Positions 1-23,867 are shown, counted from the first letter of the stretch. The stretch: 64,000 nt of DNA from Spirochaetia bacterium (GCA_965208575.1 CBDBOV010000004.1:864001-928000), one strand, 5' to 3'. Notes: generated by a model from the sequence alone, not told the origin. Made by a program: numbers and translations.

Positions 1-1
1 G

Positions 2-913
2 TGCTCGGATGCCGCCTATCACGGCACCAGCGAGGCGGTCGGCAAGCTCACGCACGTGCGCCGGCGCAGTGCCGAGCGGGGCGCCGAGGTACGCGGCTTT
101 CCGTTCCCGCAGACCTATCGACCGCTCGCCGGCGGACCGGCCGGCGAGCCGATCGAAGAACTCCGGGATCGCTACCTCGATCGCCTGCAGGCGGCCATCG
201 ACGACCTCACCAACGACGGCGTGGGGTTTGCCGCACTCCTCGTGTGTCCGATCTTCGCCAACGAGGGGCTGCCCACGGTGCCCGCCGGCTTCCTGCCGCG
301 GGCCGCGGCGATCGCGCGCGCGGCGGGGGGAGTCGTGGTCTCCGACGAGGTCCAGGCAGGCTATTGCCGCACCGGTCGTTGGTGGGGCTACGAGGTTGCC
401 GGATTCGAGCCCGACATCGTGGTGACCGGCAAGCCGATGGGGGCCGGGCTTCCGCTCGCGGCAACGACCGCGAGCCGCGAACTCGTGGAGACGTTTCGAA
501 GGACCGGCTACTTCAACACGTTCGCGTCGAGCCCGCTGCAGGGCGCCGTCGGCAAGGCGGTCATCGACATCATCGAAGACGAGGGGCTTCGGCACCACGT
601 CGCGACCGTCGGCGCGCGCCTGATCGAGGGGCTCCGGGAACTACAGCCCCACTACCCTGCCATGGGCGACGTGCGCGGCCACGGCCTGTTCGTCGGGGTC
701 GACCTGGTCGCGGATCCGGCGACCAAGGCGCCCGATCGGGAAGGTGCCGCCAATGTCGTCAACGCGCTCAAGGACAAGGGCTTCCTGACCGCGAGCAGCG
801 GCGTGCACAACAACGTGGTCAAGATGCGTCCGCCGCTGGTCCTCGGCGCCGCCGATGCCGATGCGTTCCTGGCAGCCTTCCGAGAGACGATGGCCGATCT
901 CTCCGGTGGATAG
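2..913 (+). CDS. Class III PLP-dependent aminotransferase (5'-truncated by window edge)
   Basis: Frame open from base 2 (CSDAAYHG...). Motifs SDEVQAGYCRTG, PDIVVTGKPMG (PLP lysine), YFNTF, DVRGHGLFVG. Confidence 0.9.
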   Translation, partial: CSDAAYHGTSEAVGKLTHVRRRSAERGAEVRGFPFPQTYRPLAGGPAGEPIEELRDRYLDRLQAAIDDLTNDGVGFAALLVCPIFANEGLPTVPAGFLPRAAAIARAAGGVVVSDEVQAGYCRTGRWWGYEVAGFEPDIVVTGKPMGAGLPLAATTASRELVETFRRTGYFNTFASSPLQGAVGKAVIDIIEDEGLRHHVATVGARLIEGLRELQPHYPAMGDVRGHGLFVGVDLVADPATKAPDREGAANVVNALKDKGFLTASSGVHNNVVKMRPPLVLGAADADAFLAAFRETMADLSGG

Positions 914-1910
914 AGCAGCGATCGAAGAGCGCTACGGCGGAGCGGCTCGATCGGCGATGGACGCGTTCGGGCTCGCCGGCGGTGCGCTGTCGCTGGTCGC
1001 TGTGTCCGAGAACGTCACGTTCCGCGTCGACGCGCCCGATGGAGACGCGTACGTGCTCCGCCTGCACCGGCCCGGCTATCACACGCTCGCCGAGCTGGTC
1101 TCGGAGCGCACATGGACCGCTGCCCTCGCGGGCGCGGGGATGGCAGTTCCCCGTGGCGTCACGACGAACGGCGGACGCCACTACGTCGAGGTGGTCGCCG
1201 CCGACGGCGAACGACGCTACGCCGGGGTAACGCGCTGGATCGAAGGCACGCCGCTCGGCCGGGTGCTGCGCGCTGCCGAGGCGGACGAGTACCTGCCGCA
1301 TTTCGATGCCATCGGTGCCATTGCGGCGACGGTCCACAATCAGTCGAGCGGGTGGGCGGCGCCCGCGGGGTTTACCCGGCACGCGTTCGACGTCGACGGC
1401 TTGTTCGGCGAGACGCCGTTCTGGGGTCGATTCTGGGATTCGCCGCTGCTGTCGCCGGCGGAGCGCCGGCTGGTCGTGCGCACCCGCGACGCGATCGGCG
1501 CCGCGCTCGCCCGCTACGGCGCCGACGCGCGCACCTACAGCCTCATCCACTCCGACCTGCACTTCGGCAACGTCCTGGTCGACGGCGACCGGCTCGCGGT
1601 GATCGACTTCGACGACTGCGGCTTCGGCTGGCACCAGTACGAACTCGCCGTGGTGCTCACCGGGCATCCGGCCGAGCGCTTCGACGCGCACTTCGAGTCG
1701 CTGCTGCGTGGCTACCGGCGGGTGCGAGCCTTCCCGGACCAGGATGCGGCATTGGTGCCGATGTTTGTCGTGGCGCGCGCGCTCGCACAGTTGGGATGGA
1801 TCGAGCAGCGGCCGGAGCATCACCGCCCGGGCGTGGTGCAGGCGCACAAGGACCGAGCGTGCACCCTGTGCGCGAGCCTCGACACGCGCGAGTTGACCGT
1901 TACGCCGTAG
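906..1910 (+). CDS. APH/homoserine-kinase-type-II-like phosphotransferase
   Basis: SENVTFRV, YVLRLHR, Brenner motif IHSDLHFGNVL, VIDFDDCGFGW. GTG at 906 overlaps the upstream stop; start is inferred. Confidence 0.85.
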   Translation: MDRAAIEERYGGAARSAMDAFGLAGGALSLVAVSENVTFRVDAPDGDAYVLRLHRPGYHTLAELVSERTWTAALAGAGMAVPRGVTTNGGRHYVEVVAADGERRYAGVTRWIEGTPLGRVLRAAEADEYLPHFDAIGAIAATVHNQSSGWAAPAGFTRHAFDVDGLFGETPFWGRFWDSPLLSPAERRLVVRTRDAIGAALARYGADARTYSLIHSDLHFGNVLVDGDRLAVIDFDDCGFGWHQYELAVVLTGHPAERFDAHFESLLRGYRRVRAFPDQDAALVPMFVVARALAQLGWIEQRPEHHRPGVVQAHKDRACTLCASLDTRELTVTP

Positions 1911-1988
1911 GGCCCTGATCGCCGTCTTCATCGCTTCAGTACCGAGTATAACTGGCACCGCCAGTTGGGTCTGGGCAGTGGTTACACG

Positions 1989-2135
1989 CCATGGCTGGCT
2001 CTGTGGCCTGGTCTTTGCCTGACGATTACCGGTTACAGTCTCAACATGTTCGGCGATGCCGTGCGGGATCTGCTCGACCCGCGGCTCAGGGGTGGTGGGG
2101 GTCGTCTCGGTGCCGCCAGCGCCAAGTCGGCTTAG
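1989..2135 (+). pseudogene. C-terminal remnant of a DppC/OppC-type ABC permease
   Basis: Translates to PWLALWPGLCLTITGYSLNMFGDAVRDLLDPRLRG...*, matching the typical DppC C-terminus (N..GD..RD.LDPR). No N-terminal part is present. Confidence 0.7.
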
Positions 2136-2222
2136 AGGGGCTTGCAGGAGCCATCGGCGTCGTCCGGCGGCAATCAAGCGCCTGCCACCATCACCATCAT
2201 GCGCTGCAACCTGCCAACATCG

Positions 2223-3128
2223 CTACCTCCGTTTTGGTGTGACCCCGGCGGCAGCGTGGGTCGCAAGCCAGCGGGCGACGGCATCGTCGTCATTGGCAGG
2301 GATGGTGGTGGTGGCGTGGCGCTTCAGGGCCGCGGTGGCGTTGGCGACGGCGAGGGCGGTGTCGGCGGCCTGGAACAGACCGATGTCGTTGTCGCCGTCT
2401 CCGAACACCACGAGCCGGCAGCCGTGCAGGTCGGGGCGCCGGCGAATCAGTGCGGCGACACCGCGCTCCTTGCTGGCGGCGGCGGCATGGACGGTCAGCC
2501 AGTACCAGCCCGGCGAGTAGGTGTTCTCGAAGCAGTAGGTGCGGACGGCGTCGGAGTGGCGCTGGTGGATTTCTTCCCGTAGCGCGTCCAGCGGTTCCTG
2601 GAGGCCGATAACGGTGAAGCAGACCACCTGTTCGCGCAGGCCGTCGCGCAGGTTGGCCAGGCGGCGCAGACGCGGGTCGCCGAGCGACTCGCGGTCGTCC
2701 AGGTACCACTGCATACCGGCATTGATCACGGTGTCGTAGTAGAGCCGGTCGGCGCGCCCATCCCAGGTCGAGACGAACGGCACGTGGCCGCTGCGCTGCA
2801 CCAGGGTCCACAGATCCCCCAGCAGCGCCGGGGCCACGGCGTGTACGACGTGGTGGTGGCCGGTCGCGAGGTCGGATACGAACGATCCATTGAAGTCGAC
2901 CACCGGCAGGGTCAGATGCAGGCCGGCCAGGAGGTGGCGCAGCGAGGAGCAACTGCGCGCGCTGGCGACGGTGAATTGCAGCCCCGCCGCCAGCAGGTTG
3001 TTCAGGGTGTCGCGGCTGTAGCGCGACAACGTGCCGTCACTGCCGAGCAGCGTGTGGTCGACGTCCGACACGTAGAGGATTCGTGCGGCGCGGTCGGCAT
3101 CGGGTGACGGCTGCGCTGGGCGGGTCAC
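2223..3128 (-). CDS. Cof-type HAD-IIB hydrolase
   Basis: SDVDHTLL (motif I), TVASAR, SKERGV, VFGDGDNDIGLF (motif IV). Start uncertain; the ORF is open to 3182. Confidence 0.88.
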   Translation of the reverse strand: MTRPAQPSPDADRAARILYVSDVDHTLLGSDGTLSRYSRDTLNNLLAAGLQFTVASARSCSSLRHLLAGLHLTLPVVDFNGSFVSDLATGHHHVVHAVAPALLGDLWTLVQRSGHVPFVSTWDGRADRLYYDTVINAGMQWYLDDRESLGDPRLRRLANLRDGLREQVVCFTVIGLQEPLDALREEIHQRHSDAVRTYCFENTYSPGWYWLTVHAAAASKERGVAALIRRRPDLHGCRLVVFGDGDNDIGLFQAADTALAVANATAALKRHATTTIPANDDDAVARWLATHAAAGVTPKRR

Positions 3129-3367
3129 GACCGAGTGCTCACCTTGGCGCTCCACGTGCCACCCGATGCGGGCCTGCGGCACTCGCGGACGGTCGGGTCA
3201 CTCGGGGTCGTGACAATCCCGGGCTGTATGCCACGGGCCGTCGAGGCGTGGGGTCGTCGGGGCGATGAAGGCCTGCCATGCCGTCGTCGGCGCTTCGGCA
3301 GCGCCGCTTCGCGTGTCCCGAGCGCTCCACGGCGGCGCGTGTCTGCTGCTCTGCCGCCACATCGGTC

Positions 3368-4102
3368 TCAGGCCGCCGGCAGTAGCTCGGCGATGGCGTG
3401 CACGATGCGGTGAGGCTTGGCGGCGGGTGCTTCGGGGAGCCCGTCATGGCGGCTGTCCACCCACACCGTGTGCAGGCCGGCGGCGTGCCCGCCGGCGATG
3501 TCCTTGGCCAGGTCGTCGCCCACCATCCACGCCTCGTACGGCTGCCGGCCGACCGCGGCCAGGGCGTGGCGGAATACGGCCGGATCCGGCTTGCCGATGC
3601 CGAACTCGCCCTCCACCACCACCACGTCGAAGTAGGGCACCAAGCCCACCCGCTCGATCTTGCCGCGCTGGCTGGGCGCTTCGCCGTTGGTGACCAGCGC
3701 CAGCGCCACGCCGCGGCGGCGCAGCTCGACCAGCGTCTCCAGGGCGCCGGGGAACGGCTGCAGCCGGTTGATCCGCTCCTGCACCACGAACGGGCCGGCC
3801 CAGGCGGCGGCGCCGTCATCGCGCCAGCCCAGCTCGTCCAGCGCGCGGCGTGCGATGCGGGTGCGGGCGCCGGCCTGGTTGAGACGACCCCAGTCGGCGC
3901 GCTCCTGGTCCTGCCAATACCAGCGGTCGGCGGCGAAGAATGCCACGGACGCCTGCTCCCGGTCCCACCCGCGCTCCCCCGCCAACCTGCTCGCGGCTTC
4001 GTGCCATGCGCCGCGGGACGCGCGGTAGGTGTCGACCACGGTATCGTCCATGTCGAACAGAATGGCCGCCGGAAGGGCGCTGCCGGGCATGCGATGGTCC
4101 AC
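3368..4102 (-). CDS. HAD-IA family hydrolase
   Basis: ILFDMDDTV, LVTNG, GKPDP, WMVGDDLAKDIAGG. Confidence 0.9.
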   Translation of the reverse strand: MDHRMPGSALPAAILFDMDDTVVDTYRASRGAWHEAASRLAGERGWDREQASVAFFAADRWYWQDQERADWGRLNQAGARTRIARRALDELGWRDDGAAAWAGPFVVQERINRLQPFPGALETLVELRRRGVALALVTNGEAPSQRGKIERVGLVPYFDVVVVEGEFGIGKPDPAVFRHALAAVGRQPYEAWMVGDDLAKDIAGGHAAGLHTVWVDSRHDGLPEAPAAKPHRIVHAIAELLPAA

Positions 4103-15543: not shown

Positions 15544-16729
15544 CTACACTTGGGCGCTGACCTCCAGGAGATCGAAACAGCGCTGCTGCAGCGCGGTCGG
15601 TTCGCTGTGCATGGTGAACGTGGCGCCGCTATCCACTATCCGCACGCGGTTGGCCGTCAGCGTCCCCAACTCGCTCATCAGGCTGCGAAAGCTGTGCACC
15701 GGCAGACCGTCGTCGGTACGCTTGCTCGCCGCCTTCCGGTGTGCGGCCGGTGAGCGTTCCGCCGGTTGCACCACCGACTCGCGCAGCGCCTCGCCGGCGG
15801 CGCGGTCGTGGTCGTCGAACAGCACCGGCGCCAGCTTGCTGCGCATGTGCCACTCCACGTAGTAGGCCAGCATGCACAGGAACACGTGCGCCCGCACCCG
15901 GTCAGCACTGCGGTGATAGATCGGTCGCACCTTCAGATCCACCGTTTTCATGCTGCGGAAGGCGCGCTCCACCTTGGCCAGATCCTTGTACGCCGTCACC
16001 GTCTGCTCGGCGTCGAACAGCTCCGGCTCCACGTTGGAGCGCACGATGTAGAGCCCGTCCAGTTCTTCCTCGGCCGCGATCTTGTCCAGGTCACGCACGA
16101 ACGAGAACGAGTCGTCGGTGATGGTGGTGGTGAAATGCTTGCCCACCTTGTAGTGGTTGATCACCTTGCCCACCCGCAGGCCGATCGCGGCGGCGCCGCG
16201 CAGCGGCTTTTTGGCGCGCTGCGTGGCCGTCACGATCGGCGTCAGTTCCTCCTCCGTGGAGGCCAGCAACTTCTGCCTCTTGCGCTGCCGTTGCTCGGCC
16301 AGGATCGGGTTGCGGCACACGATCAGCCGCTCGCCGGGGAACTCGGGTGAGCTGATCTCCGCCAGGTCACGCTCGTCGAACATGGTCTGCGCCACTTCGC
16401 CGGCCTCGATCAGCTTGCGGATGGTGGGCGCCCGCAGGGTCGTGATCCAGCGCAGGCCGTCGATCCCCTGCAGGTCCTCGCGGATGCGCGCGCCGGTGAG
16501 CATGCCGCGGTCGCCGACCAGCACGACGCGCTGCAAGCCGAAACGGTTGCGAATCTTGTCGACCTGAGCGGCGACCGTCTTGGGGTCACTGGTGGAGCCC
16601 TCGAATACCTCGACGGCGATGGGACAGCCGTCTGCGGTACACAGCAGGCCGAACACGATCTGCAAGGTGCCGCGTTTGCCGTCGCGGCTGTGACCACGGC
16701 GCGCCAACGGGCAGGTGTGGCCATGGAAG
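15544..16729 (-). pseudogene. IS1634-family transposase, C-terminal part
   Basis: HGHTCPLARRGHSRDGK..LQIVFGLLC...CPIAVEVFEG, VLVGDRGML, YKDLAKVERAFRSMK...RPIYHR..DRVRAHVFLCMLAYY. Confidence 0.9.
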
Positions 16730-16885
16730 TGTCGGCTCTCAGATTGATCTGAGCGGAATGGGGGCGGACGTCTCACGATCGACTGGAGTGGAGGACGGGA
16801 GAGTCGAGGTAAACTGACCAGAAAAACAGGGTAGCTGCCCCAGGTGATGAGAACCGGACAGCTACCCTGAACTAAGGACAGCCGA

Positions 16886-17497
16886 TTGGTACTCCATCTG
16901 GCGGTTGATTTCAAGAGACTTCAGGAACAGGGCAAGGAGTATCGGTGGCCGCGGCCGGAGCGCTGCCTGGAGTGCGGTCGGAGGCGGCCGTGGGGCCATG
17001 GCTATGTCGGACGGTGCTTCGATGGCTGCGGCGAGCCGCTGTGGATGAAGCGCTACCGGTGTCCGGACTGCGGGACCGTGTACACGCTGCGACCGGACAG
17101 CCACTACCGCGGGTTCTGGGCGCCGTGGCGAGTGATTCTGGTAGCCCTGCTGGGCAAGCTGAAGGGTGGTCGCTGGATCGCGCGGGTGAGCCGACAGCGG
17201 CAGCAGTACTGGCGCCAGGGGTTGCGCCGGCAGTTGTTGCTGGAGGGGGTGACCGCGGTGAGCCGGCCGGGCCAGGTTGCGGCCAGTGCGCTGAAGGCGC
17301 TGGTGGTGCGGTTGATCATCGTCAGTACGCATTCGGTGAGCTACCGCCAGATACGGCGAGTGGATGCCGCCCCCGAGTTGGTGCTGGCGGTGCCGGTGGT
17401 GGGCTTTGCGGGACACCTTGATGGCGTCGGGAGCACAGCAGACAGCGCCCTGAAGGAGCCAGGGAATGAGCCGACACCCAGTCACGGGGCACGATGA
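16886..17497 (+). CDS. DUF6431-like zinc-ribbon protein (transposon accessory)
   Basis: CLECG...WGHGY..R......MKRYRCPDCG.VYTLRP. TTG start. First ORF of the element. Confidence 0.7.
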   Translation: MVLHLAVDFKRLQEQGKEYRWPRPERCLECGRRRPWGHGYVGRCFDGCGEPLWMKRYRCPDCGTVYTLRPDSHYRGFWAPWRVILVALLGKLKGGRWIARVSRQRQQYWRQGLRRQLLLEGVTAVSRPGQVAASALKALVVRLIIVSTHSVSYRQIRRVDAAPELVLAVPVVGFAGHLDGVGSTADSALKEPGNEPTPSHGAR

Positions 17498-17778
17498 GCA
17501 CGGTGCTGGTCGCGGGGTGCCGGCTCAGACCGGGCAAGTGGCTGGTGAGCAGTGCAGGAGGACGCCGCCGCGGTGCTGGCGAGCGCCTTTGGCGCTTGGG
17601 TGGCTGTCCGGGCGACGCTGCGGGCAGGGCGCTGGTGGCGCGGCTGATCATGATCGGAGCGGAGAAAATAACGCGAACTGGCGCCTGGGTGACCCCAAGC
17701 CTACCGGATCTTTGCGGTGATCGGCGAACCAATGGGGAGCAAATTGATGCCACCAACACCCCAGGAGGTTCCTCGATC

Positions 17779-19095
17779 ATGGAGGAAGAGAAGAAAAAGC
17801 GGATCGCGTTGTTCCGGTTCGGTGTGATCGCCGGCCTGATCGGGTATGCGAAGCTCGACCAGGGCAAGCGCGAGGCGCGCATCAAGGACCTGGCGGAGCA
17901 GGAATGGAAGATCCCATTCTCGCTGCGCAGTTCGATCAGCCGGTCGACGATCCGCGACTGGCTGCGGCGTTACGAGCACAGCGGCAAGAAACTGGAGAGC
18001 CTGTTCCCGAAGGACCGCGCGGACGCCGGCGTGGGGCGCAGCATCGATCCCGAGACCGAGTTGGCACTGGTCAATCTCCGGCGTGAACTGGCACAGGCGT
18101 CGTTGTCAGTGGTGCTGCAGGTGGCGCGCCGCCGCAATCTCCTGCCGCCCGACTTCGCAGCCTCACGGCAAAGCATCTACCGATTGTTCCGGCGCCATGG
18201 TCTGCACCGGCAGCGGCCCGCGACGCAGGACCGGCGGCGCTTCGAAGCGGAACTGCCGAACGACTTGTGGCAAGCGGATTGCATGCACGGCCCGCGCGTG
18301 AAAAGCGACGGCAAGCTGCGCAAGACGTTTCTGTTCGCCTGCATCGATGATCACTCGCGGCTCATCACCGGCGCCCGCTTCTATCTGCGTGAAAACATCG
18401 ACTGTTTCCAGGACTGCCTGCTGCGGGCGCTCGAAACGCGCGGTCTGCCACGCAAACTGTATGTCGATAACGGCCCCAGCTTTCGCTCCCAACGACTCAG
18501 TTACGCCTGTGCATCGCTGGGCATAGCGCTCCTCTTCGCGACCCCATACACGCCCCAGGGAAAGGGTAAAATCGAGCGCTATTTCCGCACCATACGCACC
18601 CAGATGCTGCCTCTGGTCAGCGATCACGATACCCTCGAGCAGCTCAACGCCCAGCTTGCCGAGTGGCTCGACCACAGCTACCATCAGCGGCTTCACTCCA
18701 GCACCGGGGAGCAGCCCCTGCAGCGCTATCTGCGCCACCTGGAACTGCTGCGGCCTGCGCCCCAGAATGTGCGTGACCACTTCCGCACCATGGTGCGCCG
18801 CAAGGTCGACAAGGATCGTGCCGTCGCCCTCTACGGCAAGCTCTACGAAGCGCCGGTGGGGCTCATCGGGAACACCGTCAACCTGCTCTATCATGAGGCT
18901 GATCCGTCCCGCATCGAGGTGTTCTTCGAAGATCGCTCTTACGGCTTCCTCAGTGAGTTGAACCCCCACGTCAACAGCCGCGTGCGCCGCATCAGCGGCC
19001 ATGAGACCGAGCTCGAGCCGGCGCCGGAGCCGCCCGCTGATGACCCCCAGCCCGGCCCCCGCGGCGGCCAGCTGTTCGAGGAGTCCGACCGATGA
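17779..19095 (+). CDS. DDE transposase/integrase (rve core with Mu-transposase-like C-terminus)
   Basis: RIALFRFGVI, HTH S.STIRDWLRRY, LWQADCMHGP, CIDDHSR, LYVDNGPSF, PYTPQGKGKIERYFRT, YHQRLHSSTGEQP, RRKVDKD. RBS AGGAGG at 17763. The frame is open upstream to ATG 17494. Confidence 0.92.
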   Translation: MEEEKKKRIALFRFGVIAGLIGYAKLDQGKREARIKDLAEQEWKIPFSLRSSISRSTIRDWLRRYEHSGKKLESLFPKDRADAGVGRSIDPETELALVNLRRELAQASLSVVLQVARRRNLLPPDFAASRQSIYRLFRRHGLHRQRPATQDRRRFEAELPNDLWQADCMHGPRVKSDGKLRKTFLFACIDDHSRLITGARFYLRENIDCFQDCLLRALETRGLPRKLYVDNGPSFRSQRLSYACASLGIALLFATPYTPQGKGKIERYFRTIRTQMLPLVSDHDTLEQLNAQLAEWLDHSYHQRLHSSTGEQPLQRYLRHLELLRPAPQNVRDHFRTMVRRKVDKDRAVALYGKLYEAPVGLIGNTVNLLYHEADPSRIEVFFEDRSYGFLSELNPHVNSRVRRISGHETELEPAPEPPADDPQPGPRGGQLFEESDR

Positions 19096-19922
19096 TCGAC
19101 CTCAGACATGCCTTCGGTTTCCAACGCGATCCGTTCCCCCAGGACGTCCCGATCAACGGTCTGTACCCGATCCCGGGCCTGAAAGCGCTCACCGAGCGCT
19201 TTCAGTATGCCCTCGGGCTCGGCCTCATCACCGTCATCACCGGCGAGGTGGGAGCGGGAAAATCCACTTCCCTGCGCCATGTCACGAGCACCCTGCACCC
19301 CGCCGAATACCGTCTCCTGGCGGTCATCGCCACCACCGGCACGCTGCTCGACCTGCTGCGCCAGATCTGCCTGGAGATGGGCACCCCCCCGCGCTCCTCA
19401 CTGGCCGTCCTCAGCCGCACCGTGCGCGACCTGCTGACCGACATCAGGCGCAAGAAGCAGACCCCGTTGCTGGTCGTCGACGAGGCACATCTGCTCCGCT
19501 TCGAGGTGTTCGCACAGCTCCACACTCTCACTCAGTTCGCCTTCGATTCGCAGACCTTGATGCCGATGGTGCTGGCCGGCCAGAGCAGCCTGCTTGACCG
19601 CCTGTTGTTCCATACCTCGCGCCCGCTCGCCTCACGGGTCGTGGGCCGCAGCCACCTCGATGCTCTCTCCCTTGATGACATGCGCGGCTACCTCGACCAC
19701 CATCTGCAGCTCGCCGCCGGGCGGGACACCCAGTCCGCCACAGCGCGGCGCAGCGCCGACCTGCTCAGCGACGAAGCCGCCGTCGCCATCCATCAGGGCT
19801 CCGGCGGGCTCCTGCGGCGCGCCAATCATCTCGCCCGCGGCGCCCTCATGGCGGCCGCTCGCGAGCATTGCTCGGTGGTCGCCGCCGAGCATGTCCGGCT
19901 CGCTGCCACCGAGATTCTGTAG
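19092..19922 (+). CDS. ExeA/TnsC-like AAA+ ATPase
   Basis: FGFQRDPF, Walker A GEVGAGKST, Walker B LLVVDEAHLL, LAGQ, SGGLLRRANHLA. ATGA overlap with the transposase stop. Confidence 0.9.
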   Translation: MIDLRHAFGFQRDPFPQDVPINGLYPIPGLKALTERFQYALGLGLITVITGEVGAGKSTSLRHVTSTLHPAEYRLLAVIATTGTLLDLLRQICLEMGTPPRSSLAVLSRTVRDLLTDIRRKKQTPLLVVDEAHLLRFEVFAQLHTLTQFAFDSQTLMPMVLAGQSSLLDRLLFHTSRPLASRVVGRSHLDALSLDDMRGYLDHHLQLAAGRDTQSATARRSADLLSDEAAVAIHQGSGGLLRRANHLARGALMAAAREHCSVVAAEHVRLAATEIL

Positions 19923-19931
19923 GTCGGTTCC

Positions 19932-20246
19932 GTGATCAACGTCGCTATCAGAAAAATCGCCGGCAGCGACCGCGAATACTTCGCCTACGCCAGGACGTTC
20001 GCCGGTCGCGCCACCTACTTCGTGTATTTCCGTGATGACATCTGGGGCGCCATGGTGCTGCACAACTTCACCGACATGCTGCGCGCCGTGTTCCAGAACT
20101 CACCCGTCAAGCTGACTCTCGTCGAACAGGAACTCTCTCTCAAACATCCTGCCGTTCTCGGCTTCCTGAGACAATCTCCTGAGGACCCCTCAGCACCACC
20201 GACAGGAGATCTCGCCCGCGGCCACCGGCAACCCGGTGCAGAATAA
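19932..20246 (+). CDS. Hypothetical protein (fourth ORF of the transposon)
   Basis: 104-aa GTG-start ORF 9 bp after the ATPase stop, with globular-looking composition. It ends within the right-end repeat region. Confidence 0.6.
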   Translation: MINVAIRKIAGSDREYFAYARTFAGRATYFVYFRDDIWGAMVLHNFTDMLRAVFQNSPVKLTLVEQELSLKHPAVLGFLRQSPEDPSAPPTGDLARGHRQPGAE

Positions 20247-20300
20247 TATGGTGTCCAGATTACCGTGCGAAAAAACAGCAGAATTACGTGAGACCCAACA

Positions 20301-20850
20301 GGAAGTAACTGGAAGTCAGGTCGTACAACATGAGCGTGTTGTCATGCAGATGGCGCTTGGCCAAGCGCTGCTCGATGCCGTGCTGGCGAGCGAGCAGCCA
20401 ATCCATGGCGGCATACAGCTCATTCTCGTCGACGGCTCCCAACTGCAGCAGGTGGCCGAGGGAGGAGACGGCGCTTTCGGGGTTCAGGCCGCGAGCGGTG
20501 GCGAGTTTGGAGCGAGCGTCGACGACGCGAGCGACGATCATGGCGACGACCAGGTCGCGTTCACGGGAGGCGGGACGAGCGACGAGGGAATGGAGGGAGA
20601 GCTTGCGGAGGGAACCGAGGACGGCGGCGACGTGGCCGTGGGGATAGCTGCGCAAGATGGAGAGCAGTTCGTTGGGAGAGCGCAGAGCGATACCGCCGTT
20701 GAGGAGGACGCGCAAACCCTCGACGAGGTGATCGGGCCACTTGGAGAGGTTGGCGATGGTGCGTTTTTTGACCTTGCCGTGCTGGCGGAAGGACTCGCGG
20801 AGGAGGACGGCCGGGGGAGAGTTGCGGTTGGGGACGGTGTCGATGTACAT
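20301..20850 (-). pseudogene. IS1634-family transposase, N-terminal part
   Basis: MYIDTVPNRNSPPAVLLRESFRQHGKVKKRTIANLS, PHGHVAAVLG, ELYAAMDWLL.RQ..IE..LAKRHL, LYDLTSSYF. Confidence 0.9.
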
Positions 20851-21052
20851 GGGCACCCTACGGAGGGAATGGTAGATCATTTAATAATTACATGTCAACC
20901 AGATGAGAGAAAATTAACGCTGAACCACAGGACTATTTACATGGACACGATTTACACCCATGAACACGCTAATTCCTGTAATAGGAAACAGTTACAAGAA
21001 CGGCCTCTCAAACCTCGGTCTAAACAAGCCATATGATCTACTTGCAAAGTGA

Positions 21053-21454
21053 ATGAGCGAGGCTGGAAGCAGCCGGAAAGCACCACCATCCGGCATAGAC
21101 GAAGATACCAGGCATTAACTGGCCACGCTTGCAAGAAGGAGTCGGGCGCGCATTACCGAGTTTCGTCGGGACCGGCCGACGGAATGGCGCCCACAGGAGG
21201 TACGCAACCCCGACGGCCTACTCGCACCGTACTTCACCGATGCCGATGCTTGGGAGTTGATCGCGTCACGGCTGGAGCGCGGCCACCAGGTTGAGGTCGT
21301 CGAGTTGCGCAAACCACCAGGCCGTACCGGGTACGTCATGATGATCAATCTTGGCACGGACGAGATCTATGTGAAGCTGCAGTTGGGAGCCGGATAAATC
21401 ATCGGACGTAGCTTCCACTATTCCAAGCATGATCGAAAGGAACCTAACAAGTGA
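21053..21454 (+). pseudogene. MqsR-like toxin with two in-frame TAA stops
   Basis: MSEAG...DTRH*LATLARR...GYVMMINLGTDEIYVKLQLGAG*IIGRSFHYS...*. TAA at 21116 and 21395. IYVKL...SFH resembles the MqsR/RelE C-terminal core. The final TGA overlaps the antitoxin GTG. Confidence 0.7.
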
Positions 21455-22017
21455 ATCCAACCGATGCCGTACGAGCGACAGACGACAGTTCATTCGGAGA
21501 CCTGACTTGCCCCATCTGTGGCGAAGCTGGCGTGGTCACTTACGATCATCACGACACATTCGAGTACGGATCGGGTGAGGCTGCGGTCACGTTGCAGGTC
21601 GAACTCCCCATTCGCCGCTGCGAAGCATGCGACTTCGAGTTCCTTGATCAAGAAGGAGAACGACTAAAGCACGAGGCCGTGTGCCGACACCTTGGTGTCC
21701 TTACTTCGACTGAGATACGCCAGATTCGCAAACGATACGGGATGACGCGATCCTCATTTGCTGAGTTTACTGGGCTTGGAGAGGCTACTCTGAACCGTTG
21801 GGAAAACGGCGTGGTTATTCAGAATCGAGCCAACGACCGCTATCTGCGGCTTCTTGGTATAGAAGATATATTCCATAGGCTAACAGACTTGCATGCGCGT
21901 ACCAATGCGCCGCTGGAGAAACCAGATTCCACCCAGCGATCTCACTTTCGCGTCCTTAGGGTGTCACCAGACCATCGACGACGTCAGGCTCATTTCCAAC
22001 TCCGAAAGGCAAGTTGA
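21451..22017 (+). CDS. mqsA: MqsA-like antitoxin (zinc finger + XRE HTH) with C-terminal extension
   Basis: CPICG...RRCEACDFEF, EIRQIRKRYGMTRSSFAEFTGLGEATLNRWENG..IQNRANDRYLRLL. Confidence 0.85.
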   Translation: MNPTDAVRATDDSSFGDLTCPICGEAGVVTYDHHDTFEYGSGEAAVTLQVELPIRRCEACDFEFLDQEGERLKHEAVCRHLGVLTSTEIRQIRKRYGMTRSSFAEFTGLGEATLNRWENGVVIQNRANDRYLRLLGIEDIFHRLTDLHARTNAPLEKPDSTQRSHFRVLRVSPDHRRRQAHFQLRKAS

Positions 22018-23867
22018 GTACTATGTATGTCGCAACGTTTTATTCGTTCAAGGGTGGCGTCGGAAGAACTATGGCCCTTGTCAACGTGGCCGTGGAACTG
22101 ACCCGTAAGGGGCGCCGAGTACTTGCCGTAGACTTTGATCTTGAGGCACCGGGACTTGATACTTTCGACCTGGCTCGCCCTAGTGGGGAGTCTCCAGGTG
22201 TAATAGATTTTGTAAGCACCTATGCTAGCACTGGGGCGTCACCAGACGTAGCGCAGTTCATGTTCGAGTGCTCCAACCTAACAAGTGGTGATGGTTCCTT
22301 GTGGATAATGCCAGCGGGTGCACATCGCGACAGCTACGCGACAACGTTCGCAGAGATCGATTGGGCTGATTTATATGAGAATCATGACGGCTACTTGCTG
22401 TTCGAGGATCTAAAGGAACAGTGGAGGGAATTGATCAATCCTGACTACGTCCTGATTGATTCGCGTACCGGCCATACCGACATCGGCGGCATCTGCACTC
22501 GTCAACTTCCGGACGCGGTAGTGGTGCTGTTTTTTCCGAATGCTCAGAATCTTCGGGGATTGACCAAGGTAGTCCACGACATCCGAGCGGAGGAATCCGA
22601 TCCTGCTGAAAGAGCGATCGATCTCCACTTCGTTATGTCCAACGTTCCAGACCTTGACGATGAAGACAAAATCCTCGAAGAGAGCATTGCTTCATTCCAA
22701 ACGAAGCTCGGGTTTCGTGTGGAACCGTTGCTGATCCATCGTTACGATAGCCTATCGCTGCTCAATCAGGTGATCTTTACCAAGGATCGGCCGCGGAGCC
22801 GGCTTGCTCGAGAATATGCCACCCTCGCGATAGAGATTATGCGCCTAAATCCGTTGGACCGGGACGGCGCCCTGATGTATATCGACGGCCTGTCTCGGAA
22901 CAATCGGACCGGTCAAGGTTCCACGAGCCACCGGACAAGCGTCGACGATCACCTGCGAAGAATCGAGACGAACCACTCTTGCGACGGCGAGGTCCTGTAT
23001 CGTGCCGGATCTCTGCGTGCGGAAGACGGCCGATTCGATGATGCGGTCGCGCTATTTGGTTCCGCTATAGATGCAGGTTACCGTGCGCCGGACGTGTTTC
23101 TCAGGAGAGCCGACATTAGACGGTTCGAAAATGATCGCGACGGGGCGAGTATCGATGCTGCTCAAGCTCTTCAATTGTCAGATGCGACAGCTGTACAGGT
23201 GCGACGTGCTCTTGCAATGATCCCGCCGGGGGAACTTGTCGATGTCGCGAACTCACCAGCCATTACTTCATTGTCCCCTGAAGATCGGGTACGAGTCGCT
23301 TCCGACTACAATCGGTCCACGTTCACTGCTGAGACCACGCACAACATACTCCGCCCTCTGCTGAGTGACCCCAGTCTATCATCGGACTTGCGAACTCGAG
23401 TGAGGAATGAATTTATACTTGCGTCAATATCCGTAGGTAGATTCTCCGAGGCAATCACGATCTCTCGTGAAGAAGAGTCGAGTCTAGAAAAAATGGACAT
23501 CCAGTTCTCGTTCAACTATGGGATGGCATTGTGGGGCAAGACGGGACACATAACACAAGATCCATTCGCACGGGTTGTGGATCTTGACCGGCGGCACCCC
23601 AGAGAAGATCCGGGGCCCAACTTCCTGCAGTGCATGTCGATTTCACATTGGGCAGTTGGTGAAGTAAACAGAGCACGTGACGTGCTGGAAAAAGCACGTC
23701 AAATGATCACTCGACGCCCTCGAGAATTTAGTTGCTGGAGATATTCTCACGTCTTGCGACGCGAATTTGATCAGGACATTCAGGAGATCCGTCTGATGAT
23801 CGATGGTGACGATACAGTACTCCCTCGATATATGCGAAGTGAGGGGCATCGTTCACTAATGTACTGA
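22014..23867 (+). CDS. ParA/MinD-type (KGGVGR motif) ATPase fused to a TPR-like helical C-terminus
   Basis: TFYSFKGGVGRT, VLAVDFDLEAPGL, DYVLIDSRTG, then helical repeats (GEVLYRAGSL..EDGRFDDAVALFGSAI; FNYGMALWG). TTG overlaps the mqsA stop; ATG 22023 is an alternative start. Confidence 0.85.
   Translation: MSTMYVATFYSFKGGVGRTMALVNVAVELTRKGRRVLAVDFDLEAPGLDTFDLARPSGESPGVIDFVSTYASTGASPDVAQFMFECSNLTSGDGSLWIMPAGAHRDSYATTFAEIDWADLYENHDGYLLFEDLKEQWRELINPDYVLIDSRTGHTDIGGICTRQLPDAVVVLFFPNAQNLRGLTKVVHDIRAEESDPAERAIDLHFVMSNVPDLDDEDKILEESIASFQTKLGFRVEPLLIHRYDSLSLLNQVIFTKDRPRSRLAREYATLAIEIMRLNPLDRDGALMYIDGLSRNNRTGQGSTSHRTSVDDHLRRIETNHSCDGEVLYRAGSLRAEDGRFDDAVALFGSAIDAGYRAPDVFLRRADIRRFENDRDGASIDAAQALQLSDATAVQVRRALAMIPPGELVDVANSPAITSLSPEDRVRVASDYNRSTFTAETTHNILRPLLSDPSLSSDLRTRVRNEFILASISVGRFSEAITISREEESSLEKMDIQFSFNYGMALWGKTGHITQDPFARVVDLDRRHPREDPGPNFLQCMSISHWAVGEVNRARDVLEKARQMITRRPREFSCWRYSHVLRREFDQDIQEIRLMIDGDDTVLPRYMRSEGHRSLMY

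Follow-up and report, generated by a model that had tools for sequence, protein, structure and literature searches.

What is the mobile element that interrupts a transposase gene in this stretch of DNA, where exactly does it end, and which known transposons does it resemble? The stretch, hereafter the window, consists of 64,000 nucleotides from a Spirochaetia bacterium (GCA_965208575.1 CBDBOV010000004.1:864001-928000), and the element occupies positions 16,730 to 20,300. An initial annotation, made from the sequence alone, had described it as a complete, compact Mu/Tn7-like transposon without TnsA or TniQ and with exact ends, inserted into a host insertion sequence (IS). Our analysis indicates, with a probability that we place at about 0.8, that it is a complete, autonomous, compact and recently active DDE transposon of the Tn6049-like group. 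The element, the duplicated target and the two parts of the interrupted gene are arranged as follows (bp, base pairs).

16730..20300, plus strand: transposon, 3,571 bp, with TGT...ACA ends and eight identical genomic copies.
16725..16729, no strand: left 5-bp target-site duplication GGAAG, defined by the flank overlap in about 30 uninterrupted host-IS paralogues.
20301..20305, no strand: right target-site duplication GGAAG, defined by the element boundaries and the overlap in host-IS paralogues.
15544..16729, minus strand: C-terminal part of the interrupted host IS1634-family transposase (NF033559, 256.9 bits, model positions 143-482).
20301..20880, minus strand: N-terminal part of the same transposase (NF033559, model positions 2-143).

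The first bases of the element are TGTCGG and the last are CCAACA; its terminal sequences, TGTCGGCTCTCAG at the start and GTGAGACCCAACA at the end, are each abutted by GGAAG (16725-16729 and 20301-20305). Removal of the element and one GGAAG in silico yielded a single minus-strand frame of 586 amino acids (aa), and the two halves cover positions 2-143 and 143-482 of NF033559, which confirms that the insertion lies inside the IS1634 gene. When twelve excision offsets were compared, the three in-phase offsets gave frames of 585-588 aa, and the remaining nine broke at 238-300 aa. The ends were also fixed independently of this reading-frame argument, because all eight copies in the genome (6.5 Mb, six contigs) are 100% identical across exactly positions 1-3571 and diverge beyond them. 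The host IS also occurs uninterrupted elsewhere in the genome, in about 30 copies that serve as empty sites: the matches to the left flank and to the right flank share exactly 5 bp there (on contig C6, for example, they run to 697349 and from 697345), and the 5-bp duplication is therefore directly proven. The exact ends, the TG/CA termini and the 5-bp duplication of the initial annotation all hold.

A perfect 5-bp duplication was found at five of the eight copies (CGTGT, CCGTG, GGAAG, ACCGT and GCCAC) and a 4-bp duplication (CAGT) at one. Copy L002 carries an imperfect duplication of 3-4 bp; its empty site was seen in two paralogues and identifies it as a simple insertion. The last copy, L001 (G000:C6:1527899-1531469, where G000 denotes the host genome), lies between unique flanks, with GGCCG on one side, GTTGG on the other and no duplication, which may reflect an adjacent deletion or some other rearrangement. 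An exchange of flanks between L001 and L002 by recombination was considered and rejected: the flanks do not match crosswise, and the idea was dropped for L002 since the paralogues show that copy to be a simple insertion. The other copies that the initial annotation had proposed to seek thus share the same ends, and their insertion targets are tabulated in the text below.

Four co-oriented open reading frames (ORFs), including the predicted pair of a DDE transposase and an AAA+ ATPase, were present in the element, which confirms its description as a complete compact transposon.

16886..17497, plus strand: ORF1, 203 aa, a zinc ribbon plus three-helix domain of the extended DUF6431 family.
17779..19095, plus strand: DDE transposase, 438 aa, with an N-terminal helix-turn-helix (HTH), an rve core, a Mu-transposase C-terminal domain and a GGxLF tail.
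19092..19922, plus strand: AAA+ ATPase, 276 aa, AAA_22, with Walker A at G51-T59 and Walker B at D130 E131; MuB-like.
19932..20246, plus strand: ORF4, 104 aa, a conserved small alpha/beta protein; accessory gene.

The transposase most likely starts at 17779, and not at the first ATG at 17494, because its relatives align from residue 1-9. The Pfam models rve, rve_3 and Mu-transpos_C all scored above their cut-offs, the last with 28.4 bits against 21.7. In a 49-member alignment the catalytic residues D167, D230 and E266 are at least 97% conserved, and the protein ends in a variable proline-rich tail followed by a conserved (Y)RGGxLF peptide, in which G430 is likewise at least 97% conserved. The highest-scoring NCBIfam model was that of IS481 (NF033577; 209.4 bits over model positions 20-284, curated cut-off 224), and the IS21 model NF033546 reached 74 bits against a cut-off of 160. 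The kinship of the transposase and the ATPase was judged by pairwise and profile comparisons with the proteins of Tn552, Mu and IS21 and with TniA and TniB. The Tn552 transposase frame in pMW2 (L039, about 5.7-7.2 kb) is not listed in the gene table; it consists of two pieces, 260 and 278 aa from stop to stop, and was compared as such; these pieces gave BLASTP E-values of 2.7e-15 and 6.6e-9. TniA gave 4e-6, MuA 0.009 over 48 residues, and the IstA of the host genome 0.019. The nearest solved structures by sequence were retroviral integrases (1.5e-12), the IstA of IS5376 (1.8e-10) and TnsB (8.6e-5), and MuA was not among the best 60 solved chains.

The ATPase gene begins within the end of the transposase gene, its start overlapping the transposase stop in the sequence ATGA. 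The protein matched AAA_22 (E 1.3e-23) and, at 98.5 bits and far under the model cut-off, TIGR03015; its Walker A and Walker B residues are invariant in the family. Profile comparison by hhalign aligned it with MuB at a probability of 92.3% (E 5.5e-7) over 215 columns, residues 32-275 against MuB 81-300, and BLASTP also detected MuB (E 3.5e-6). With IstB the alignment (57.8%, E 1e-4) covered 34 columns around Walker B only. TniB (5.5%, E 0.007, 86 columns) and the Tn552 protein p271 (4.4%, E 0.0093, 187 columns; BLASTP E 0.49) scored lower. Among the four helpers compared (MuB, IstB, TniB and p271), the ATPase is nearest to MuB, as judged by sequence profiles. Its relatives form at least 2,100 clusters at 90% identity (E <= 1e-10), many of them on contigs of about 3 kb, and are labelled by JGI as 'general secretion pathway protein A' or 'ExeA'.

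Relatives of the whole element were found near and far. A 2,872-bp relative with TGT...ACA ends occurs twice in G023, a genome of the same family; its ORF1, transposase and ATPase are 42%, 60.5% and 59% identical to those described here, and one of the two copies has a perfect 5-bp duplication (CCTGG). In the other copy (L034/L065) the ATPase gene is split by a further nested mobile element, an insertion of 2,443 bp with an 8-bp duplication, CGCCCAAC. The Spirochaetia metagenome-assembled genome (MAG) OY764216.1 carries six copies of a 3,182-bp relative with the ends TGTAGAATC...GATTCAACA, five of which are flanked by perfect 5-bp duplications. A wider scan, in which an ORF1 profile was compared with one genome per species, returned 170 relatives, and 78 loci were kept. 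Where at least 2,900 bp lay downstream of ORF1 (51 loci), the order ORF1-transposase-ATPase was seen in 34, and the other 17 were interrupted, rearranged or decayed copies. By their record titles the loci come chiefly from Spirochaetota MAGs, with three MAGs labelled archaeal and further ones titled Dehalococcoidia, Deltaproteobacteria, Nitrospirae, Acidobacteriota, Planctomycetales and Clostridia-type. Annotated plasmids of Cupriavidus necator, Acidithiobacillus caldus and Geobacillus carry a DUF6431 gene, then one for a DDE or 'IS481 family' transposase and then one for an AAA ATPase; the incomplete gene table of A. caldus does not list the last. On a Sporosarcina plasmid the transposase is accompanied by the ATPase and a small ORF, and the gene table lists no ORF1; in Rhodococcus a zinc-ribbon/HTH protein occupies the first slot. 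The Spirochaetaceae MAG OZ245363.1 contains at least 15 loci with ORF1 homologues (L091-L128), many of them truncated, nested or rearranged, a sign that the family may long have been present in that genome.

Repeated sites were identified at both ends of the element by comparing the ends with one another.

16736..16747, plus strand: left terminal repeat core GCTCTCAGATTG, a putative transposase-binding site.
16770..16781, plus strand: left subterminal direct repeat of the end motif, GTCTCACGATCG.
20255..20270, minus strand: right subterminal repeat TCGCACGGTAATCTGG.
20279..20294, minus strand: right terminal repeat core GTCTCACGTAATTCTG.

The left core GCTCTCAGATTG resembles the terminal site of the right end, GTCTCACGTAAT, and each end consists of a terminal site and a subterminal direct repeat of one motif. 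The G023 relative likewise has two sites per end, and so does Tn6049 at its right end. Such a layout marks the ends of Mu-, Tn7- and Tn552-type elements and not the inverted repeats of simple ISs.

Since the IS481 model scored highest, the element could be read as a plain IS481-family IS carrying passengers, in which transposition does not involve the ATPase, ORF1 or ORF4. NCBI annotates several relatives as 'IS481 family transposase', and TGT ends are typical of that family. Against this, the transposase falls short of the model's cut-off, as do five other transposases of the family (129-208 bits); the ATPase is a MuB homologue whose start overlaps the transposase stop; and the gene order is kept across phyla. 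The Mu-type C-terminal domain, the conserved terminal peptide and the two repeated sites per end also speak against a plain IS, and we regard this explanation as very improbable.

The first gene of the element is less readily classified. ORF1 itself matched no Pfam or NCBIfam model, and DUF6431 (gathering score 26.6 bits) was absent even at E <= 10. Its homologues, however, form 172 clusters, a share of which carry PF20020 (DUF6431), the carriers being 45-57% identical to ORF1. All 30 of its 30 protein-atlas neighbours are DUF6431 clusters (score 0.98), and BLASTP against a DUF6431 protein gave E 2e-6 across the zinc ribbon. The initial description of ORF1 as a zinc-ribbon, DUF6431-like protein is thus borne out by its homologues and atlas neighbours, and not by a Pfam match of its own. 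A 42-member ORF1 profile retrieved 706 representative clusters at 50% identity, and every one of the best 150 is a protein of 84-244 aa that stands alone. In the ORF1 alignment (A1), C27, C30, C59, C62, WGHGY and SRQRQQYW are invariant or nearly so, and conservation stops near residue 175. The AlphaFold model has a predicted local distance difference test score (pLDDT) above 90 for residues 1-160 and consists of a three-stranded zinc ribbon followed by three helices. The best Foldseek match in the PDB (E 0.06, to zinc ribbons of the Rpb9/TFIIS type) was not significant, and a wide VIA-align search reached a maximum Z of 2.8 (HTH-like rows), with no usable fold assignment.

The relatives of ORF1 are more informative. 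That of C. necator matches DUF6431, HTH_28 and HTH_Tnp_ISL3, and others reach Zn_ribbon_ISL3 and Zn_ribbon_IS1595; by these Pfam assignments, the domains are modules by which transposases bind their own ends. By analogy, the most probable function of ORF1 is that of a subunit that binds DNA sequence-specifically and acts on the DNA of the element itself; selection of targets is less likely. Complex prediction for the ATPase with residues 1-165 of ORF1 gave no answer (score 0.00) and speaks neither for nor against binding.

ORF1 is separated from the transposase gene by a spacer.

17498..17778, plus strand: spacer between ORF1 and the transposase gene, 281 bp, missing in the G023 relative, where the gap is 46 bp.

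The spacer gives the transposase frame a 95-codon upstream extension that is not common to the relatives. It holds one 24-bp repeat, 92% identical, of an ORF1 segment; the idea that the spacer arose by duplication and decay of the ORF1 3' end was rejected, as this one repeat is its only support.

Several observations weigh against the identification of the element as a complete, recently active transposon of the Tn6049-like group, or against parts of it. Three of the eight copies are without a perfect 5-bp duplication, and one of these, L001, has none. The transposase does not reach the IS481 cut-off and resembles MuA only marginally. The roles given to ORF1 and to the C-terminal tail of the transposase come by deduction only, and DNA binding by ORF1 is drawn from weak HTH and zinc-ribbon similarities together with the Pfam matches of its relatives. 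The literature found on the group holds annotations only and no experiment.

Upstream of ORF1 lies an inverted repeat.

16827..16869, plus strand: stem-loop with an 11-bp stem, z -5.4, 17 nucleotides upstream of ORF1.

Stem-loops stand at the matching place in the G023 relative (z -2.45) and in the OY764216.1 relative (z -6.8), and their stem sequences differ. A stem of at least 8 bp with a loop of 12-36 nucleotides, located between -95 and -40, was present in 40 of 60 distinct family upstream regions, and in 200 shuffles the mean was 10.1 and the maximum 16; stems of at least 10 bp occurred in 18 regions versus 1.3 in the shuffles. These results are suggestive of a stem structure that is conserved across the family, with stems that vary yet stay complementary, though the related sequences are not independent and the comparison involved no formal covariation test. 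A run of A precedes the stem on the plus strand, and a simple scan calls a terminator-like site on the minus strand; the stem-loop could act as a transcriptional insulator, as an mRNA 5' structure or as a protein-binding site. An Rfam scan of the element gave no match at E <= 1. In a scan for sigma-70-type promoters there was no plus-strand promoter at the left end, and one minus-strand match near the right end was within chance.

At the other end of the operon, ORF4 is a real gene, since its homologues, 22 clusters, share a well-conserved core of about 85 aa. Its model (pLDDT 74) has the order beta-beta-beta-alpha-beta-alpha. Searches of Pfam gave no family match and those of the protein atlas no usable one, and fold searches returned nothing convincing (Foldseek best E 0.029; VIA-align wide maximum Z 6.3, to a de novo designed protein). 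A kinship with RNase H-like nucleases was considered, as the fold order recalls their first half, and was rejected: strand 1 is without a conserved acidic residue. ORF4 was found in none of the 78 related loci by tblastn or by a hidden Markov model of its alignment (A2). It is also missing in the G023 relative, where the right end lies about 56 bp past the ATPase stop. On these results ORF4 cannot be the target selector of the family core; the initial annotation had named it, or else ORF1, as a possible selector.

ORF4 may instead be a passenger, unrelated to transposition and gained between the ATPase gene and the right end. Its absence from the related loci and from the closest diverged relative would fit this, as would the small size of its family and the lack of a family or fold match. 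Yet a homologue of ORF4 also lies directly downstream of the ATPase gene in the distant L022 lineage (transposase 33%, ATPase 27.5%, ORF4 49% identical), and in remnants. Moreover, other lineages place a different small ORF in the slot: in Tn6049 and Sporosarcina it overlaps the ATPase stop, which suggests a recurrent accessory of the ATPase. The ORF4 family showed no significant similarity by hhalign to the fourth ORF of Tn6049 (E 0.46) or to that of C. necator (E 0.096 over 15 columns, an FFxxxxDDxW-like stretch seen by eye). We consider the chances of the passenger explanation to be nearly even, if slightly below. By gene content across the loci, the core of the element is a three-gene operon and the fourth slot is variable.

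Insertion into another IS had led the initial annotation to suggest that the element targets mobile DNA. The eight copies disrupt the IS1634 transposase gene (the window copy), an Rpn/Transposase_31 gene, a tyrosine recombinase gene, an AAA-ATPase_like/PDDEXK_9 gene, a gene for a cadherin-repeat adhesin, an unnamed repeat family of about 10 copies, and two unique sites. The copy in the repeat family, L004 (G000:C6, about 62.7-67.0 kb), has flanks that are 92% and 85% identical to other members; the frames beside its junction have no Pfam match, and the family may be another unclassified mobile element. Both flanks were repeated elsewhere in the genome for six of the eight copies, compared with 380 of 3,000 random sites (12.7%; binomial P ~9e-5); either flank was repeated at 24% of the 3,000 sites. 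In the OY764216.1 relative, two of six copies lie inside the transposase genes of other ISs (Mutator-family and rve), and two lie in or beside AAA_31 and AraC-type genes. No target consensus emerged from the eleven perfect 5-mers of the element and the two relatives. The enrichment in repeated DNA therefore stands, but the targeting proposed to explain it does not necessarily follow, as survival in dispensable, multi-copy DNA explains it equally well.

Under that second explanation, to which we incline slightly, insertion is near-random and copies persist only in dispensable, redundant DNA. The genome is very repeat-rich, as the random sites show, the disrupted genes are of unrelated kinds without a target consensus, and two of the eight copies lie in unique DNA. 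The strength of the enrichment counts against it, as does the age of the insertions: these are young, because all eight copies are identical, and selection would have had little time to act.

A further explanation takes ORF1 for a functional analogue of TniQ or TnsD. It would recognise certain target DNA, such as features of other mobile elements, and pass this on to the ATPase, and the element would then be a three-component targeted transposon. ORF1 is the first gene of the operon throughout the family, and its zinc-binding and helical make-up, at about 170 aa, recalls small TniQ proteins. The insertions of the element in repeated or mobile DNA, and those of the OY764216.1 relative in IS transposase genes, would also agree with such a role. 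However, none of the four ORFs has a Pfam match to TniQ or TnsA, and the ORF1 profile gave E 0.23 against the TniQ of Tn402, which upholds the original statement that both proteins are missing. The structural comparison with TniQ that had been proposed yielded, as its best TnsD row, Z 2.4 with a root-mean-square deviation of 6.8 over 65 residues, which is within noise. The duplicated 5-mers and the disrupted genes have no common sequence or family, and HTH_Tnp_ISL3 and Zn_ribbon_ISL3, matched by the relatives' ORF1, are of the end-binding type. No result demonstrates target selection by ORF1, and we judge that role unlikely.

The surroundings of the element are themselves crowded with mobile DNA. 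The host genome is extremely rich in repeats and ISs, with about 31 copies of the IS1634 family, an IS21-family element and two further elements with frames of 456 aa (about 30 copies) and 311 aa (about 11 copies); no IS481-family proteins over the cut-off were found in it. To the right of the host IS, at 21451-23867 of the window, a 188-aa zinc-ribbon/HTH-like ORF is followed by a 617-aa ORF. Both were read from the ORF list by eye alone; the latter opens with a ParA/MinD-like KGGVGRT P-loop.

A mechanism can be proposed with the behaviour of Mu-, Tn552- and IS21-style systems as a model, taken in part from excerpts of a published account (PMC11208146) and in part from general background. By analogy with Mu, IS21 and Tn7, the transposase would use its N-terminal HTH region to bind the repeated sites of both ends and would bring the ends together. 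It would then expose 3' CA ends and join them to the target with a 5-bp stagger, again as in these models. The ATP-bound MuB-like ATPase, by the same analogy, would coat or mark target DNA and then recruit and activate the transposase, for which the C-terminal GGxLF peptide is a probable docking tail. ORF1 may act in end recognition, in transpososome assembly or in repression, in the manner of IS1 InsA or of the ISL3 N-terminal module. After strand transfer, the route could be replicative with resolution of the cointegrate by host recombination, or copy-out/paste-in as in IS481 and IS3; both are possible because the element has neither TnsA nor a resolvase.

AAA+-helper transposons (Mu, Tn7, CRISPR-guided elements and IS21) are the best-understood examples of how target choice is regulated, and genome-insertion tools are built on them. 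The element represents another large lineage of such transposons, one that is compact, with a three-gene core of about 2.9 kb, a MuB-like ATPase and a separate zinc-ribbon/HTH protein. We tentatively suggest, while considering it rather doubtful as a whole, that DUF6431 protein, transposase and MuB-like ATPase constitute a distinct and very widespread three-component system. In it the zinc-ribbon/HTH subunit would be obligatory, either guiding the ATPase to certain DNA, for instance other mobile elements, or licensing transpososome assembly, and the stem-loop would be part of the control. If true, this would be a compact, protein-guided cousin of Mu and Tn7 that escaped study. Databases mislabel the lineage: its ATPase is called a secretion protein (ExeA/GspA), its transposase IS481. 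For annotation, an 'ExeA/GspA family' gene beside a DDE integrase and a DUF6431 gene indicates a transposon and not a secretion system. With eight identical copies, the element provides a naturally active example with exactly defined ends, and the interest lies in the group more than in the single copy: its size, its mis-annotation, the MuB-like helper, the zinc-ribbon/HTH subunit and the stem-loop.

How does the element compare with the systems that have names? With IS21 it shares a transposase with a dedicated downstream AAA+ helper, and the IstA of IS5376 is among the nearest solved structures. It differs in that the transposase reaches less than half of the IS21 cut-off (74 bits against 160), IstB aligns over 34 columns, and IS21 has no zinc-ribbon gene.

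Like Tn7 and Tn5053 (Tn402), the element pairs a DDE transposase with an AAA+ ATPase and has a 5-bp duplication, TGT ends and multiple end sites, and the transposase matches TnsB chains (E 8.6e-5) and TniA (E 4e-6). Unlike them, it has no TnsA, TniQ or TniR resolvase, its four ORFs filling the element with none matching these proteins, and hhalign gives its ATPase little likeness to TniB (5.5%, E 0.007).

Members of the IS481 family have TGT ends and a short duplication, and by definition the transposase is the only transposition protein of these elements. IS481 supplies the top-scoring transposase model and, for some relatives, the NCBI name 'IS481 family transposase'. The element departs from it in scoring below the cut-off (209.4 bits, less than 224) and in additional features, none of them a defining trait of IS481: a helper ATPase, ends with two sites, a gene for a zinc-ribbon/HTH protein and, in the transposase, a C-terminal domain of the Mu type.

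Tn552 of Staphylococcus aureus (p480, p271 and BinL) offers a module of transposase and ATPase without TnsA or TniQ and with similar protein sizes, and p480 gave the best BLASTP match among the four transposases compared (Tn552, TniA, MuA and IstA). The element is without a resolvase, a res site or resistance cargo, and the ATPases are barely comparable. Tn552 has long inverted repeats and a duplication of 6-7 bp.

The likeness to Mu comprises an ATPase whose AAA+ module and C-terminal part are homologous to those of MuB, a Mu-transposase C-terminal domain in the transposase, TG/CA ends, a 5-bp duplication, several putative binding sites per end and no TnsA. On the other hand, the element is not a phage, its ATPase lacks the first ~80 residues of MuB, and it has an extra zinc-ribbon/HTH subunit. 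The core of its transposase lies closer to those of IS481, IS3 and the retroviral integrases than to MuA, for which BLASTP gives E 0.009.

The closest layout is that of Tn6049. The copy on pHS87a (L012:2677-6193) is 3,517 bp long and has four co-oriented ORFs of 181, 479, 277 and 90 aa, with the ends TGTGCATAAGCA...TGCTCACGCACA; a passage on this copy reports imperfect inverted repeats and a 4-bp repeat (PMC4739549). In Cupriavidus metallidurans CH34, 12 copies of Tn6049 are listed, each with a 'gspA' ATPase gene, in the relevant excerpt of PMC2864759. Elsewhere, an excerpt states that the Tn6049 transposition module "could not be categorized" (PMC6210171), and in another an ExeA gene beside a DDE integrase is taken for a secretion component (PMC9679502). 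No functional study of any member of the group was found in the literature searched, outside which lies the original 2009 description of Tn6049. The initial view of a poorly characterised family was correct in this respect, but the family is not unnamed, as Tn6049 shares its layout.

Tn6049 and the element are both about 3.5 kb long, and in both a Cys-rich ORF (about 180 aa) is followed by a DDE transposase, then by an AAA ATPase (about 277 aa) and lastly by a small ORF. Both have TGT...ACA imperfect inverted repeats, two-site ends and a short duplication, and both are multi-copy, often in islands and other elements (C. metallidurans CH34; Pseudomonas aeruginosa pHS87a). They differ in that the transposases (27% identical, E 7e-39) and the ATPases (28.6%, E 8.5e-23) are distant homologues. 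The first and fourth ORFs have no detectable kinship (no BLASTP match; hhalign E 0.33 and 0.46), and the duplication is 4 bp in the pHS87a copy versus mostly 5 bp here. Taken together, these comparisons indicate that the element is a divergent new member of the named, unstudied Tn6049-like group.

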